From Paramecium tetraurelia (Eukaryota), in contig CT868207.1 in assembly GCA_000165425.1 (NCBI GenBank), positions 248,001 to 312,000 on the forward strand: 64,000 nucleotides of DNA, read 5' to 3'. A model generated the notes under the pieces. That model was not told where the DNA came from and searched no databases. It was given only the letters and a program-made list of their open reading frames with translations. A program made the position numbers and the translations under genes. Position 1 is the stretch's first letter; each line of letters opens with the position of its first letter. Of this stretch, positions 2,434 to 24,123 are shown piece after piece.

Positions 2434-5400
2434 ATGAACAATAGATCCACGATCTTTCTTGCTTTTTTACTCTAAGTTTACACAGCTAGATTTGATTATG
2501 GTTAAACTAGTGTTCGTAATGTGTAAGAAATAGAAACATAATGCTAACTGAACCAATTTCTTTTAGGAAATATTTGTTTTGGTAATTATGAAAATAATTC
2601 AGATTGTCATTATAGTTGTTAATAATGCAATGGAAATTAAGCAGATAGTTGTACTTCATGTGATACACTCACTGAAAGAATATTAAATGATAGTAAATGC
2701 TCATGTTTAGAATCTTATTATGCATTAGAGTCATAAGCAACTTGCCGAAGTAAACTGATAATTATAAATTAGAGTGTAATATATCTTGTTTGACTTGTAA
2801 AGGAGGATCAGAAAGTGATTGTTTGAGTTGTGATAATAAAAGTACACTTGTAGATAATAGATGTGTATGCAAAGCTGGCTATTTAGTCGATAGGAATATG
2901 GAATGCTCATGTAAATAAATTAAATTATTATAAAAAAGAATGTGATTTTACTTGTGAATAATGTTTCAATTCATTATTTAATGGTTGTATCAAATGCAAC
3001 CCATCCTCATTAAGATAACTCGATAATAATGAATGCAAATGTCCAACTGGTTATTATTCATAAACAGGAATGTAGTTATGTTAGAGTATAAAATATAATT
3101 ATTACAGAATGCAATGATAGTTGTAATACTTGTGATTCATAAAATTCATGTCTGAGTTGCACAGAAGATAAAATATTACAAATAAATACATGCGTTTGTT
3201 AGACAGGTCAAGTTTTAATTAGAGTTGGAAATTGGAATTTATGCCAAAGTATTATGATTTATGCTATAAATAGACTGTCATAATCAGTGTGAAACCTGTT
3301 TTGGAATTTATTCTTATGAATGTTCTACATGTAAACTTAATCGCACCTTACAGAGTGACAATACATGTTATTGTGATGATGGATACTATTTATCCTACAA
3401 TGATTGTTTGATTTGTGACTCTAATTGCTTAACTTGTGTATTTACAAGTACATTCTGTTTATCTTGCTAATTTGGATATTCAATAGCAAATAATGATAAA
3501 TGTTGTCATGGTTCAAATATTTTTAAGGACAACGAATGTTAGTGTTCCAATCAATATTATCTCGACAGTTCAGGGATTTGTAATCGTAGGATATAATTTA
3601 TTTATTTATAGCTTGCCCTTATAATTGTTTGAAATGCGATGAAAATCTTGTTTGTTCTGAATGTTTGGATAAGTAGTTTATTGGAACATCATGTGACGAA
3701 AATTGTTTGCGTGTTAATTGTTTGGAATGTGATTTAGATGGAATATGTACAAAGTGTTTACAAAATTATTAAAAGAACCTTATTGGTGATTGTGTTTGTG
3801 TGGCAGGAGAGTATTACTTTGATGGATTAGATTTTCAGTGTAAAAGTATTTTAAACTTAATAATAAGTTAGAATGTTCTTAATAGTTTTATAAATGTAAA
3901 GAATGTGATGCTACAGGTTGTGTTCTTTGTGATGAAGATTATTTCTTAGATAGTGGTTCATGTGTTAGTTGTTTGCCTAATTGCAAATCTTGCACCAGTC
4001 TTTCTATATGTGATGCTTGCTATGATGGATATTTTGATATCATTTGTGACTAATGTCATGCGAGTTGTAAAAATTGCATAGGCTCATAGAAAAATGAATG
4101 TTTAGAGTGTTCAGATGATAGAATTCCAACTGTTGTCAATATCTTGGGAGATGGTAGGAATCAAGTTGTATGTTCATGTGATAGCTTATAAAGGTATTAT
4201 GATGCTAATTTTAATTGTCAAAATTGTCATACTACATGTAATACTTGTGATGGAGGATCCAATAATGATTGTTTGGATTGTTTCGCAAGTTAAAATAGAG
4301 TCCTCGTATCTAGAAAATGTGTTTGTAATGCACTTAATAATTATGGTGATTTAGGAGATGATTCATGTTATATAATGAATTGTGGTTATGGTTGTGCTGA
4401 TTGTCATTATGATCTACTTACTTTTATATGCCAAACTTGTCACACTGGTTAAACAAATAGATTGAATGACCCTGTAGCTAATTGTCCCTGTCAAGATGGA
4501 TATTATGAAGTATCCTAAAAGACTTGCAAATGTATCAATATCATTTAATGTAGAATGTCCAAAAAAATGCGGTACTTGTGATTTAAATTCATCAAATTAG
4601 CCATATTGTACAACATGCTCAGCTAATAGAAATGCCAATGATAATTGCAACTGTCTTATTGGATATTATTAAAATTTAGATGTTATTTGTAATAAATGTC
4701 CTGACACCTGTGTATATTGTTTAGCAGCTGATAAATGTGTTCAGTGCGAACCGAATTTTTTTCTAAAAGATGGGATGTGTGTCTGCCCCCTTAGGAATTT
4801 TTATTATAGATCTACATGCTCCTGCTTATAAGGATATTATATGCACTTAGAAAATTAAAAATGTTTACGTATTTTAATAATATATTCAATAGCTTGTCAT
4901 CCTAAATGTGAATAGTGTGAATTTACATCTACAAATTGCACCAAATGTTCTGAAAACTATTATAATCCCCCTGATTGTACATGTGCTTCTGGACTTTATG
5001 AGTTGGATAGTAAATGTGTTCCTTGCATAAATAATTGTCATCTTTGCAAATCTGATTCAGAATGCTTAGATTGTCCTAATCAATTGACTTTAATCTAAAA
5101 TTAATGCATATGTTAATCTGGGTATTTTAATAATCCTGGGAGTTAAGATTGCAATTAATGTTCATTATAGTGTGTGGAATGCAATTATCATCAAGATAAC
5201 TGTCTCAAGTGTAAATTTAATAGAGTATCACCCTAATTATGTGTCTGTCCAATTGGAACTTATGAGGTTGACTTAGTTTCTCCATGTTTGAATTGCAATT
5301 CTGTATGTTCCACTTGTGAATTGAATGCTAATAATTGTCTTAAATGTTCCTTAAACAGAGCAGATCCTCCCCTTTGTAAATGCAAAATGGATTATTTTGA

Positions 5401-7994
5401 AGATAAAGATTAAATATGCTAATAGTGCAATTCAAGATGCAAAGTATGTGAGACTTCACCAGAAAATTGCATAACATGTAAAATAGATTTTTCCTTACCC
5501 CCTAATTGCGATTGTCTAGATGGATACTTCTATGATATTTCAAATGGATGTGTCAAATGTCATAAAACGTGTTAAACTTGCAATGGATCTCAAGATTATC
5601 ATTGTTTAACATGTGATACTGCTAGGCTTATGTAATTATAAAATACGAAGTGTGAGTGTTAAAAAAATTACTACTATTAAGATGATAACTGTTATCTCTG
5701 TTCTATTGAAATTGATGTCTGTCAACCTAAAATATGTGGGGATGGAATTAAATCAAGATAAGAGGATTGTGACGATGGAAATAAAAATAATAGAGATGGA
5801 TGTTCAAGAGATTGTAAATTAGAAGCAGAATATTATTGTGAATTAATGCCAAATTTGCAAATTCATAGTTCTGTATTCATGTCTACCTGTACTAAATGTT
5901 CACAGAACTGTAAAGTTTGCAATTCCAGCAGATGTCTCCAATGTAACTCAGGATATTTCTTGACCAAATCATTTGAATGCAGCAAATGCGAGTAATATCC
6001 TATTTCTATTTCATAGTAAACATTGTAAAGAATGTGCAGGACCCTTTTAGAAAGATTGTCTGTCTTGCATCAAAGGTATTGATTATGGATTTACTCAAAA
6101 ATGTGCATTTTGTGAAGAAACTCTAGGTTTGTATACGAAGGGACTTCAATGTGCTTCTTTATGTGGTGATGGTATTAGAAAGAGTGATGAGAAATGCGAT
6201 GATGGAAACACTATCAATTAGGATGGGTGTTCTAGTACTTGCCAGATTGAATAGGATTGGGGTTGCAATTAATAAATAAATACTTTAAGCGTTTGTTACC
6301 AATTAAATTTATCCATTGCTTCCTTGGAATTCGAAAGAGTTAAAGATTTTTATCAGTCATCAAGATTTGGATTAATTTAATTCAGCAAACCTATGATGTT
6401 GATTAATTAATCTATAATCGAATCATGGAAATAGGAAATCGTTAATTAGATTGATAATGTAGATTACAATATTAATTCAACTACTAATTATAATTAAGAT
6501 GGCCATTTAGAGTCCATTTCAATTGAATTACTCTTGCATAAGAGTATTGATTTCGTTTAATATCAAATTAACTTTACAAATTACATAATTTACGATGCAA
6601 TCGACTAATATCCTTTGAAATCCTCATTTCTGGAAAAAGAATTATTGAAATATAAATAATTAAGTAGTCAAACTCTGAGTACTACAAAAGCATCAAGGTA
6701 ATTTGGATCTACTGTTTTATTTATCTTAGGAGGAATTGCTTTAATAGGATTGTTGATGGGAAGCTTAGATTTTTATTGGAATGTGCTAGACAATCTATAA
6801 ATTCTATCTTACATCACATATATCAATGTCAACTTTCCTTATATGCATAATTAATTTTTGGACATTTTTTAATTTGCAAGGTTTGAATTTACTAATGATT
6901 TTTTCAAATTTGATATCATAAACGGTTTGGATTATCATTAAAATAAGGATTACCCTCTAATTGTAGAAAGAAATGTAGAGTACAACCTAGTCATTAATTT
7001 AAGTTCTATCATAGTTTTATGGGTTACTCCCTTAATTCTGTTGTTCATTTCTAAATTTAATCTCTTTATAATACAAAAATTGTTGATTAACAAATTTCAA
7101 AATGTCAGACTAACATAAAAAGTAAGCAGTCTTAAATTTTTGGGTTACAAAGTAGTTTCATTTATTCACTTTATTAGTTTGAAGTATTGCGCAAATTTTT
7201 ACTATAATATAATACTCAGAGTCTATCTGTCAAGCTTATACGATCTGAATTTTTCCATCTTTACTTCAGCCTATTGTTGGTTATGGAATCAAAGTCCGAA
7301 TTTTGTAGATTAAGTTTCATTCCTAGGTGCTATGAGTCTCCTCCTATTTTAACTTGTCGTCTTATTTATGCTTTCAACGTCTCTAAAGGCATCCTCCTAT
7401 CAAATCACTTCAAAGCATTACGAACAATATTTTGGATCTCTATATGAAGGCATCAAATCGGTCAAACAAATCAATAGATAAATTTAATTTCTCTAACCTC
7501 TAAGAAAAATTATGTTTATGGGTGCTTTGATATTATTTTTTGATACTGCAATTTATCAGATTTCACTTTTGATATCCATACAAATCTTGTCATCAATTGT
7601 TTTAATAACTCTTAATCCTTATATGAACTTTCTGGAGACTATTAAAGGCATTACCTAGGATGTTGGATTGAGTCTTTCATTATCTTTAATCTTATTTTAT
7701 TATGCGCAAGATTAATTTTAACTAACAGACTAAGATACCATAGAAAAGTTATCCTACATTCATGTTGGGATCTATACTATTATGCTTTCAACAACCCTTA
7801 TTATTGATTTATATTAATAATTCAAGATAATTAGCAATAAATATAAATATTTATAGAGACTTACCTAAGTGTGTCAAAAGAGGAAGCCAGATAATCAACA
7901 ATCCAATAGAGATATGTTTATAGATTTAAGCTAGGAAAACGGCATCAAATTACAAACAAATTAATTTTGCTTCACTAATTTGAGGATACAGTGA
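2434..7994 (+). CDS. large cysteine-rich membrane/surface protein: furin/EGF-like repeats, two Myxococcus-type Cys-rich repeats, multi-TM C-terminus
   Basis: Signal-like start MNNRSTIFLAFLL; dozens of CxxCxxxCxxC units; CGDGIKSRQEDCDDGNKNNRDGCSRDC (~5735-5815) and CGDGIRKSDEKCDDGNTINQDGCSSTC (~6162-6242); hydrophobic segments after ~6710; TGA 7992-7994. Confidence 0.9.
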
Positions 7995-19260: not shown

Positions 19261-20314
19261 TCAATAGATTTCAGTATTTTTAAAATTTTAATGGACATGT
19301 TTTATCCTTTTTCTTGAATCCTTTTTAACAGGCATTTCACAATTTTTACATTCATCACACTTACATAATTCAGAACACTTGACTCCCATTTAATAACATT
19401 CACAATATTTTTTTAGACCAATTTGATTTTTTACAATTGCATCCTTTAAAATGTCTTGGTTTGTGATCTTATTCATCTTCTGAGTTGCTCTAATTGATAT
19501 TAAAATAAATTGTACTTTGGATTCAACCTTCGGGCGAAATGCAGACGGATTTCTTTCCATAATCTATTTGATAACAATTTCTCTTTCTTTTGGATGTTCA
19601 TCATTATTATGACAAGAACAGCAATTGCAATCCTTGCCACATGTTACACCAGCTGTAAAGCAATCACAATATAATTTAAGACATTTGGATTTCTTACAAT
19701 TACATACGATTATTTTTGGTTTTTACTCTGTTTATGGTTTCCTTCTTTTAGAACTTGTACGTTTCCTATTGGTTATTTAATCACTCGTATATTTGAGTGG
19801 CTTTTTTAAGGTAACAAAATTGATGAATTTCAATTTAGTAGCTCTTTCTAATTTTCTGTGAGGTGATTTGGGAGGACTTCTGAATTGAGAACGATTGTCT
19901 TGATCTTCAGATTAGATCTCTTCTTCCTCGCGTTATAGATCATCTGGTATCTTCATTGAACTGAGAGGCGAACTTATATTGACAAGTCGTTATTCTGTCT
20001 TTGTATGATCAAAGTTGATTTATCTGGCAGGAGAAATAATGAATATATTTGCCTTTTTGGTTGTCTAATGATTTAATGGAGAATAAGGTTGAAATCTAAA
20101 ATTTATAATGGAAAGTGAATACTGATTTAGGAGACTTCAAACATGGAGTGAATTCCAATTTCTTACAGACTTATTCAGGGGACTGGTCTTTTATATACAC
20201 ATCATCTTGGTGTTGGACACAATCAGCGTTAAAAACAGGGGATTGATGAATTTTTTCTAATCTTTAAAACAATTTAGTAAATGGAGTTCCATCTTATTTA
20301 AAATCTGAGCTCAT
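19261..20314 (-). CDS. tesmin/TSO1/LIN54-like CRC (two CXC) domain protein; apparent frameshift in the 2nd CXC
   Basis: [26 protein letters not shown] linker, [32 protein letters not shown]. Confidence 0.9.
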
Positions 20315-20806: not shown

Positions 20807-22338
20807 ATGGGTCATCTTTTCAGACATTAAGAAGGAGAGGCAGGTAATTATGTATTTTGAATATGCAGCTGTCCCTTCCATAGCTAATATTCCAGCACCT
20901 CAAGCATCAACTATAGACTATGATTGGATTCTAATTTCAGGGTTCATTATAGTGTTGACCTAAGTGGGATTTGCATTTATTGAAGCAGGATCCGTGAGAT
21001 ATAAGAATTCTTAATCAATAGTCATAAAAGTGATATTGGGTTTGTTCTTGACAATATTAATATGGTGGTTGGTAAGATATGAAGCCTATAAATATAGTTC
21101 GGATATGGATTTTCATTTGGATATGATTTCTAAACAAACTTTATGGGAGGTACAAAATTAGGAGGAGCAAATTGGGAAGCAAATCAATACGGAAATTGAT
21201 TATACAAACTTTGGGTATTTAATTAATATTCATAATCCGTTTAGTGTTCAGAGCAGCAGGTGCAGCAATAGCCGTATCAGTGTTATCTGGAGCAGCAGCA
21301 GAAAGAATGACCTTCTTGGCCTGGTCAATTTTGACAATTATATATGCAGGATTCATATATGCTGGATTAGCACATTGGACATTAGCACAAGGATGGTATT
21401 GATTAAATGAGAATATGAATAGGTTGACAACTTTGGGATACAAAGATTTCTCAGGAGCTGGTGTAGTATTTTTCGCAGCAGGTGTAGCTGGATTAGTTGT
21501 GACAGTATTATTGAAACCAAGGAGATTCAGATTTGATCCAAACACAACCTTGTAATTCTAAAGACATTCTCCAATTTATATTGCTTTCGGATCAATTTTG
21601 GTCTTCGCAGGATGGTTATTCTACAATGGAGGTGTTGTTGCATAAGGAGCCAATTCCAAATACACTTAAGGATTAGTGGCAGTCAATACATTGGTTGCTG
21701 GAGCCACTGGTGGATTCTTTGCCTTCATCATTAGATACTTCTAATATGAAACCACAAGTTTGGTTGCCTTGTCTAGAGGTATTATCAGTGCTTTGGTGGC
21801 TGTCAGTGCTGCTACTGATGACATGAAACCATGGACTGCATTCATTTATGGTTTGTTGGCTGCTGTCTTCTACAGTGTTTTGGCAAAAGTCATCCCAAAG
21901 GTACATATTGATGATCCCGTTGAAGTTGTACCTGTGTTTTTGGTACAATATTCTATTAACTCATTTAGGGTAATGGATTTTTGGGAATCTTCTTGTCAGC
22001 CTTCTTTGACACCAAAGCTGGTATTATCTATGGATTTGGTGCTAAATTATTGGGAATGTAATTGTTGGGATTATTGATCATTTTTGTATGGGTTGCCTTC
22101 TTTGTCTTGATCACATTGCTCATTTTAAAGGGATTCGGAGTCCTTAGAATAGATGCTGAAACTGAAAATGTTGGTATTGATAAAGCTCATTGTAATTTAA
22201 TAAAATTTATAATTAGGTTTGGGTGAGGCCATCGTTTTTGCTAACTAAGTTGATGAGGCTCCTCTTATACCATAGACTGAATTGGTTAAGCTAGGAAACA
22301 GCCAAATTGGATCAGGATTCAGACCTGGTTTTAGATGA
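20807..22338 (+). CDS. ammonium transporter (Amt/Mep/Rh family), divergent; local frame disruption at ~21197-21215
   Basis: QVGFAFIEAGSVRYKN, SGAAAER, KDFSGAGVV, GWLFYNGG, AVNT, HIDDPVEV, LRIDAETENVGIDKAHC; multiple TM segments. Confidence 0.9.
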
Positions 22339-22454: not shown

Positions 22455-24123
22455 ATGTACATAAAAGGTATTTGGAATTAAGTAGACTAATACTAATAGT
22501 TTACTTAGCCAGAATTAAGTATAAGATTACAAAAAATCAGTAAAAATTCTAACTTTGTATCTCTGCATTGTACTAACAAAGAAATGGTCCTCTTCAAAGT
22601 AATTTAGTTTAATCATAATTGAAGGGACCCAATTATGGCAAAGCCTATAAATATTTAAGAATCGGATTTGATTATAAGTTTTAGGTTTTAAGAAGTCCAT
22701 CACTTCTGATAAATCCCTCTTTGTCAGAATGGAAGGGAGAGAACATTAAACAAATAGGGGAAATTCTAGCTATTAAATTATTTAGAGAAAATAGTATAAA
22801 GTAATGCGAGTTTAAAGGATCTTTAAGAGACTTGCAAATGCTTAGGGAATTTTTAGGGAAGAGAATGAATTAGGTTGGCTTCCATTAATATTTCAAAGTA
22901 CACAAGTTGATTGGTTAAGGAAGTTTTGCTTCAGTATACTTAGCTACTAGAATTGAGGATGGAATGAAAATGGCAGTAAAGGCCTTTTGTAAGAATGCCA
23001 TCTATAAATAGGAGAAGGGAAAAGTAAAAAGTTTAAATATATCATAGGATGGCCTGGTTAATGAAATTCAAATAATGAGAGACTTAGAGCACCAGAATTT
23101 GATGAAATTATACGAAGTTTATGAAACTCACAACTCAATTTATATGGGCTTAGAATTACTAGAAGGTGATTTGCTTTATGATCTTCACAAAGTAAAAAGA
23201 AAATTTACATCCTGGGAGATTTACACTATCATGAAAGGTCTCTTAAATGGTCTAGCTTACATTCATGAAAAGGGTCTTATGCATAGAGATTTAAAATTGG
23301 AAAACATTCTTTTCAGATAGCCTGAGTAATGAGTCTAATTTATTTTTATAGTAACTTCAATTCTGTTGTTATTGCAGATTTTGGTTTGGCCACCTATGTT
23401 GATCATACCCCTTACATTTTTACCAGGTGTGGCACTCCAGGATTTGTGGCACCTGAAGTCATCAATTTATAGAACGACACTCAAACCTATGGAGTTATCT
23501 GTGATATGTTTTCACTTGGAGTCATATTTTATATCTTGACCACAGGGTAACCTGCTTTTAAAGGCACAAGTTATAACACTATTGTTAAATCGAATCGAGC
23601 AGGGTTTATTGATTTGTAAACGGATAAGCTAAATCAATCATCTTGGAATTTGAAAGACCTATTATGTAAGATGCTTTAGTGCGATCCTTAAAATAGAATT
23701 ACTTCTAGGTTGGCCATTCAACATGATTATTTTCGTTCTTTCGATGAAGATGAGATGGCTTTGATGTAAACAGACGATGACCCTGGACTTGAAGAGATAA
23801 TAACAAAATTGAATTCAAAATATATTAGATTGGATCTCAAAAGGCTAAATTAAAGTAATGATGATCATGAAATTTGCAAAACTCAAGATCTGAAAGTCAG
23901 TTAGAGTCAAAATGATCAAGATTAATTAAATATGGTCATGAGAACTCCCCTTCTTATAGGAAGAGTAAGATTTACAGAAGGTTTTTTGTTTGAATATTCG
24001 TAGGCTCACCAAATCAATCCATTTAGTCTTGGGATCTGAATCTCCAAAGTCCTGGTTAAGATTAAAATTAAACGAAATGGCTTAAACCATTTTTGTTATG
24101 AGGCTGCGAATTAATTTGAATGA
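22455..24123 (+). CDS. CAMK-like Ser/Thr kinase with N-terminal extension (start uncertain)
   Basis: GQGSFASVY, AVK, HRDLKLEN, IADFGLA, RCGTPGFVAPE, CDMFSLG; TGA 24121-24123. Confidence 0.88.

Follow-up and report, generated by a model that had tools for sequence, protein, structure and literature searches.

Paramecium tetraurelia encodes a multi-copy sub-family of ammonium transporter (Amt)-like proteins in which both histidines of the pore have been replaced by aromatic residues. This twin-aromatic family probably carries ammonium no longer, and the sequence evidence leans towards a non-conducting subunit. The twin-His pair is treated as a hallmark of the Amt family. Natural exceptions described in the cited papers are the Glu/His pair in fungi (PMC9040831, PMC3647058) and the His-less RhCE and RhD (10.1101/2022.02.10.479914). 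With RhCE/RhD as its precedent, the Paramecium family is a conserved clade of Amts without the histidines, in a model organism amenable to genetics. The member described here lies in a 64,000-nucleotide stretch of contig CT868207.1 (positions 248,001 to 312,000), hereafter the window.

Gene structure, integrity and transcription

The window had a GC content of approximately 28%, used genetic code 6 and contained introns of 25–30 bases. The Amt-family gene spanned positions 20807–22338 on the forward strand in seven exons and encoded 456 amino acids with two extra assembly bases omitted. An earlier reading made from the letters alone (the sequence-only reading) had located both pore motifs correctly, but its gene limits of 21245–21990 were too narrow. 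Exon 1 (20807–20843) began with the ATG at 20807 and was followed by an intron at 20844–20868. Exon 2 (20869–21071, intron 21072–21097) encoded TM1, the ICL1 motif AGSVRYKN and TM2; in the contigs of RNA run X17, its letters formed a loose end before 21097. Exon 3 (21098–21214, intron 21215–21244) contained the extra single bases, 21196 and 21213. TM3–TM4 were encoded by exon 4 (21245–21395, intron 21396–21422) and TM5–TM10 by exon 5 (21423–21942, intron 21943–21968). Exon 6 (21969–22191, intron 22192–22216) encoded the end of TM10, TM11 and the C-terminal coupling region (LRID..E.GID), and exon 7 (22217–22338) a disordered tail ending in a TGA stop, without a fused domain.

The stop at exon 7 was identical in the paralogs L002 and L010, and this conservation ruled out a fusion with the gene directly downstream, a separate Ser/Thr protein kinase gene (22604–24036, forward strand). 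Upstream, on the opposite strand, lay a gene with a Tesmin/TSO1-like CXC domain (19264–20136, reverse strand).

As assembled, the reading frame was broken, a point absent from the sequence-only reading: the extra bases 21196 and 21213 created a TGA at 21197–21199 and a frameshift. The read evidence comprised four of 24 runs (three DNA-type and one RNA), whose contigs carry no expression level. Both bases were absent from all three DNA-type runs (X1, X15 and X14, from three studies), and a copy-specific RNA contig (run X17), identical over 21121–21196, joined exon 4 in frame with the intron removed. The frame break therefore stems from the assembly, and the gene itself is intact, transcribed and spliced. 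The assembled stop is the one point in favor of a pseudogene or decaying duplicate, which the DNA runs and the in-frame spliced contig ruled out and to which we attach next to no probability. Against it also stood a dN/dS of 0.043 relative to L002, the closest modelled paralog (Nei–Gojobori; 16 versus 94 changes), and an annotated, intact P. octaurelia counterpart (P0001) with 98.7% identity to the window gene product. Relative to four older paralogs, the dN/dS was 0.12–0.17 (Nei–Gojobori).

Paralog L010 had an extra base of its own, near the position matching window position 21681. A read contig with L010 letters was ungapped relative to the window; since the extra base lacked read-contig support, the annotated protein of L010 (P0005) is probably mis-modelled.

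Pore residues and fold

Translated with code 6, the motif DFSGAGVVF began at 21445 and DDPVEVVPVF occupied 21910–21939. A profile alignment placed the residues on E. coli AmtB, whose sequence was translated from NC_000913.3 (AmtB numbering is used throughout unless stated). The alignment bore out every residue assignment of the sequence-only reading: Phe (TTT) stood at both His168 (21469–21471; Phe185 of the protein) and His318 (21937–21939; Phe341), F107 was Gly (21259), W148 was Leu (21382) and F215 was Tyr (21622), with D160 (21445) and W212 (21613) kept. F103 (21247), E121-R122 (21301), N216 and D309-D310 (21910) were also retained. Further changes, not noted in the sequence-only reading, were S219 to Val (21634), Q104 to Arg (21250; Arg121 of the protein) and S263, at the cytoplasmic exit, to Arg (AGA, 21775–21777; Arg287). 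The alignment to Sd-Amt1 was ungapped at both His positions, and an alignment slip was ruled out, both motifs being ungapped against Sd-Amt1 and AmtB. By alignment, the outer binding site (W148, F107, S219) and both His are gone, and Arg occupies the exit position.

Among 361 non-Paramecium Amt domains pooled from three protein searches, His was present at 168 in 350 and at 318 in 354. Aromatic residues at both positions occurred in two of these domains, Arg263 in nine and Leu at W148 in none. Given this rarity, the twin-Phe state is not due to chance.

The fold itself was that of an Amt. PF00909 matched P0001 with an E-value of 4.8e-78 over profile positions 2–392 of 399 and was the only domain in this protein. 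The predicted structure of P0001 (pLDDT 87.9) aligned with AmtB (2ns1) over 389 residues with a Z-score of 58.6 and an rmsd of 1.9, and Foldseek gave TM-scores of 0.8–0.94, with the 11-helix Amt fold present. Compared with AmtB and A. fulgidus Amt-1 (2ns1, 2b2f; Z 58, rmsd 1.7–1.9), the 11-helix fold, D160, W212, N216, E121-R122, D309-D310 and the C-terminal coupling region were shared, whereas the window protein had a natural Phe/Phe pair and Arg at both 104 and 263, and lacked W148, F107 and S219. The canonical features missing were thus the twin-His (or Glu/His) pair, the outer S1 site (W148/F107/S219) and the Phe gate (F107/F215). Identity to Rh proteins was 17–19% with a Z-score of 43, versus 25–28% and 48–59 for Amt/Mep proteins, and in trees without Rh rows the twin-aromatic clade was nested among His/His Amts. 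A fused cytoplasmic output domain, the feature of ammonium receptors, was absent from the 456-aa protein.

The engineered AmtB variants H168F and H318F are single mutants (PMC3647058), whereas the window protein is changed at both positions. Fungal Mep1 and Mep3 also vary naturally at the first His (PMC9040831, PMC3647058). Their Glu is polar, transport-competent and confined to one site, in contrast to the hydrophobic residues at both sites of the window protein.

Selection on the pore and the coupling motifs

Substitution rates at 18 pore positions were compared with those at 246 other helix positions; the pore list came mostly from the cited papers and included a few positions that we assumed to line the pore. 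In canonical Amts (n = 34, a random draw from 86), the pore evolved approximately five times more slowly than the other helix positions (relative rate 0.19 versus 0.98, p = 1.6e-9). In the twin-aromatic clade (34 full-length members), this contrast was gone (0.79 versus 0.75, p = 0.76), although the clade is shallow (160 of 393 columns invariant), which limits the power of the test. Within a 27-member sub-clade, 12 of 18 pore positions and 157 of 246 other helix positions were invariant.

Positions 107, 148, 215 and 219 were among the fastest pore positions in the clade and differed between two Paramecium sub-clades; position 215 was Tyr in 25 of the 34 members, Phe in two and Ile in seven. 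Because of these rates, the recruitment site, described in the sequence-only reading as rewired, looks lost instead. Other positions were strictly kept. The twin-aromatic state was fixed in all 34 members, with Phe at 168 throughout and Phe (20/34) or Tyr (14/34) at 318. Together with the intact, spliced gene and its purifying selection (low dN/dS relative to L002), this upholds the view of the sequence-only reading that the substitutions are not random decay. All 34 members also had basic residues at 104 and 263 (Arg or Lys at 263), and D160, W212 and N216 were invariant. So were the ICL1 motif AGSVRYKN, E121-R122, D309-D310 and the C-terminal L-R-I-D, E and G-I-D residues (34/34), motifs that we take to couple the subunits of the trimer. 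On these comparisons, the pore positions taken together are no longer under special constraint, and the cytoplasmic coupling motifs are invariant.

The Amt family of Paramecium

The P. tetraurelia genome (72.09 Mb, 697 contigs searched) contained at least 20 Amt loci. All 43 PF00909 matches in the genome fell on these 20 loci, and none was Rh-like. Classes were defined from 19 of the 20 loci, which could be modelled, and the twentieth was assigned by its motifs. Nine of the at least 20 loci were twin-aromatic (six Phe/Phe, three Phe/Tyr). A second class of six kept His/His and lacked W212, W148 and S219, and a third class of five kept His/His, W212, F215 and S219. F107 was absent from all 20 Amts found, the His/His ones included.

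The six members of the second class (L011, L012, L014, L015, L016 and L021) also lacked F107, and Arg263 was present in the five whose models cover that position. They form a second non-canonical class and are candidate Rh-like excretion channels. L011, L012 and L021 had a common neighboring gene (minus strand, about 2650–2830), which is likely duplication synteny; from its motif, we presume this gene to be enoyl-CoA hydratase-like.

Twin-aromatic Amts were present in five species of the P. aurelia group (P. tetraurelia, P. octaurelia, P. pentaurelia, P. primaurelia and P. sonneborni). A relative from P. bursaria (P0122) had Asn/His at 168/318 together with Arg104, Gly107 and Lys263. Of two fragments, P0239 was Phe/Phe and P0268 had His at 168. 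In a quick family tree, the twin-aromatic rows grouped together (support 85) within a clade containing P0122 and P0268 (99), which was sister to the Arg263-bearing His/His group (95), all among the genome's own Amts. From this topology we infer that F107 was lost, Arg263 was gained in an ancestor common with the His/His sister clade, and His168 and then His318 were replaced. The concerted change of gate and pore proposed in the sequence-only reading was not borne out in that form: the loss of F107 is older and common to all 20 Amts, and the tree points to stepwise changes.

A metagenome scan recovered one Paramecium-like Phe/Tyr locus (L025). A search for short relatives, which covered proteins of 30–71 aa, returned nothing beyond Paramecium-like fragments, and an Atlas search returned generic Amt clusters and nothing else. 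The matches found included no named Amt from Tetrahymena or from any other ciliate outside Paramecium, and the family may not be confined to this genus.

In Caedibacter-infected cells, four Amts were down-regulated, of which two are the twin-Phe paralogs GSPATT00004938001 and GSPATT00003263001 (PMC5814942, supplement table S2). The word 'ammonium' was absent from the main text of a P. tetraurelia proteomics preprint. The label 'ammonium transporter' in Paramecium expression studies includes proteins that may not carry ammonium.

Independent emergence in Chloroflexota

A metagenomic protein with Phe/Phe and Arg263 (P0070) prompted a scan of species genomes, of which the best 80 of 552 confirmed matches were examined. 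Among these best 80, 21 Amt-like loci carried Arg263, all titled Chloroflexota (L026-L037, L046, L050, L053, L066, L074, L089, L092, L094 and L097; around 5000–6300). They were mostly His-less: 14 lacked both His, four retained one and three retained both. Each of the remaining 73 complete Amt domains from the best 80 loci was His/His with Asn, Ser or Thr at 263. Position 318 was F, Y, G, A, T, V, S or H across these 21 loci, and F, Y, G, A, T or V in the 14 without both His. Phe/Phe or Tyr/Phe pairs occurred in three of the 21, as well as in P0070.

In the same best 80 of 552, none of the 21 Arg263 loci included a PII gene, versus 53 of 59 canonical loci. A second amt gene was likewise found in none of the 21, and genomic context therefore gives heterotrimers no support. 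The Chloroflexota loci lay outside glnK-amtB operons and often faced a block of 2H phosphoesterase, SLOG and phosphoribosyltransferase genes. These were the recurring neighbors in the 20 of 21 loci scanned (nine, eight and four occurrences, respectively), on the opposite strand, and no clue to the substrate was found among the neighbor genes of these 20.

The tree set the Chloroflexota forms apart from the Paramecium clade. An AU test on 30 rows rejected a single Arg263 clade (p = 3e-94); the trees were quick, and 22 of 52 rows had been removed before the test. One row labelled Arg in the tree, P0076, has Asn at 263. A common origin of the Paramecium and Chloroflexota forms, or a transfer between them, was ruled out by the tree and the AU test. 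On this phylogeny, Arg263 arose at least twice independently, with aromatic residues at 168 following each time. The Chloroflexota clade (P0070, L026, L037, L092 and others) resembles the Paramecium family in Arg263, the loss of F107 and an aromatic residue at 168, but differs in its separate origin, the retention of W148, the lack of a basic residue at 104 and a small residue at Y32. No description of His-less ciliate or Chloroflexota Amts was found in the literature outside subscription journals.

Putative function of the twin-aromatic proteins

A non-canonical function, as the sequence-only reading had suggested, is likely from the sequence comparison. We hypothesize that members of the Paramecium sub-family are Amt subunits that do not conduct and that, much as RhCE appears to, act through the trimer and their cytoplasmic face, an explanation to which we give slightly less than an even chance. 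Selection would have retained the fold and the trimer contacts, and the work of an ammonium carrier would have been abandoned, as in RhCE/RhD. The two Phe rings and the exit Arg would close the pore to NH4+ and abolish the proton relay. Such a protein could be a scaffold or regulatory subunit, either in homotrimers or together with the 11 His/His paralogs in heterotrimers; alternatively, a cytoplasmic partner could dock onto its surface.

This hypothesis is favored by the retained fold, the low dN/dS values, the lost rate contrast of the pore and the invariant coupling motifs, and by the Chloroflexota Arg263 loci (14 of 21 without both His, none of 21 with a PII gene), as well as by the behavior of AmtB His variants and the expected narrowing of the exit. 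In simulations, S263, the exit site of AmtB, forms hydrogen bonds with the substrate, as do H168, H318, Y32 and I110 (PMC3647058). Out of 14 AmtB His variants, H168E was the only one to transport methylamine; single Ala variants grew on ammonium, and the double Ala variant did not (PMC3647058). Since a Ser-to-Asn exchange already narrows the exit of Sd-Amt1 (PMC11152129), Arg should narrow it further. His-less Ala variants of AmtB become leaky channels (PMC10433425, PMC9040831), but closure would be expected here, Phe being bulkier than Ala and hydrophobic. RhCE lacks the twin-His pair, has a hydrophobic block, is a heterotrimer member and docks ankyrin; its authors keep an auxiliary transport role possible (10.1101/2022.02.10.479914). 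Human RhCE and RhD (RhAG2-RhCE trimer, 7uzq) also share with the Paramecium family a natural loss of twin-His with the fold kept, and coexist with twin-His paralogs in the same cell. They differ in their separate origin on the Rh branch (17% identity, Z 43), and the partner and heterotrimer are demonstrated for RhCE (10.1101/2022.02.10.479914), whereas a heterotrimer of the Paramecium clade is putative.

Several observations speak against a non-conducting subunit. The strict retention of Phe168, an aromatic residue at 318, basic residues at 104 and 263, and D160, W212 and N216 could reflect a new selectivity filter, and the loss of pore constraint was measured with weak power in a shallow clade using a pore list that was partly assumed. 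Nine copies, versus five near-canonical ones, are many for a passive scaffold, and the Chloroflexota loci (21 among the best 80 of 552) had no second amt. Single-His AmtB mutants still grow on ammonium (PMC3647058), His-less Ala mutants turn into channels (PMC10433425, PMC9040831), and a transport role is left possible for RhCE by its authors (10.1101/2022.02.10.479914).

If the pore conducts, a passive, low-affinity route for NH3 or CO2 in excretion or pH control might be considered, which we regard as unlikely. As in Rh proteins, scavenging would end with the loss of the outer site, and a pore lined by Phe would admit small neutral gas only. In keeping with this, NeRh50 likewise lacks W148 and S219 (PMC10433425), P. 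bursaria excretes ammonium (PMC12571070), none of the 43 PF00909 matches on the 20 Amt loci was Rh-like, and two twin-Phe paralogs are among the four Amts whose expression falls on Caedibacter infection (PMC5814942). However, conducting Rh channels keep both His and export by NeRh50 needs H170 (10.64898/2026.09.24.754001); the His/His paralogs would be better suited to the task, and Arg263 sits at the exit. A channel with a new filter for another, possibly anionic, solute would account for the basic residues outside (104) and inside (263), which all 34 clade members and the P. bursaria relative have, along with an entrance widened by Gly107 and Leu148 and a waist of aromatic residues. The repeated gain of Arg263, followed each time by an aromatic residue at 168, is consistent with such a channel, yet Chloroflexota members among the best 80 of 552 lacked a basic 104 and varied freely at 318, their neighbor genes indicated no substrate, and positions 107, 148, 215 and 219 differed between the two Paramecium sub-clades. 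We consider this improbable. Similarly doubtful is a broader proposal, that the Amt fold offers a repeatable route to a new job through an exit Arg and then an aromatic swap of both His (Paramecium, Chloroflexota), with the Paramecium end product, which has a further basic residue at its outer mouth, conducting or sensing a solute other than ammonium, possibly an anion.

A non-transporting sensor (transceptor) reporting ammonium or another cue via the cytoplasmic face appears somewhat less probable again. The invariant coupling motifs (34/34) would fit it, as would Gln44 and Glu51, which correspond to AmtB positions 24 and 32; Glu at the equivalent of AmtB position 32 is an N1-site ligand in Sd-Amt1 (PMC11152129). 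The receptors Sd-Amt1 and Ks-Amt5 (8qj3, 6eu6) were the top PDB sequence matches of the window protein, and have in common with it an exit narrowed at the Ser251/Asn269 position (by prediction in the window protein) and, in the window copy, Glu at the Tyr27/Glu29 position (PMC11152129). Unlike the window protein, they have a fused output domain (kinase or cyclase), an outer Trp/Ser site, a Phe gate and the His pair (PMC11152129), and Glu51 was replaced by Gly in 14 of 34 clade members. A receptor of this type would reach its N1/N2 site through an intact His pair, which is absent here. An ordinary ammonium importer tolerating its substitutions is very improbable. D160, W212 and N216 are retained, and neither F107A, which leaves AmtB activity unaffected, nor S219A lowers that activity (PMC10433425), but the protein is altered at both His, at W148 and at the exit, 350 and 354 of 361 other domains keep His at 168 and 318, respectively, and the contrast in rate between pore and helix is gone in the clade.

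The natural intermediates, namely His/His with Arg263, Asn/His (P. bursaria), Phe/Tyr and Phe/Phe, together with the convergent bacterial series, bring two questions within reach of experiment: the role of the histidines, and whether RhCE and other members without them conduct at all.

Proteins with two Amt domains

One metagenomic protein of 929 aa (P0275) contained two Amt domains, the first Tyr/Phe and the second canonical His/His, so that domains with and without the histidines are naturally joined in one chain. Larger proteins with two Amt domains (1058–2804 aa; P0240, P0241, P0244, P0248, P0249, P0251, P0263, P0266, P0270, P0272, P0286, P0288 and P0302) had Tyr or other residues at F107 and kept His/His.
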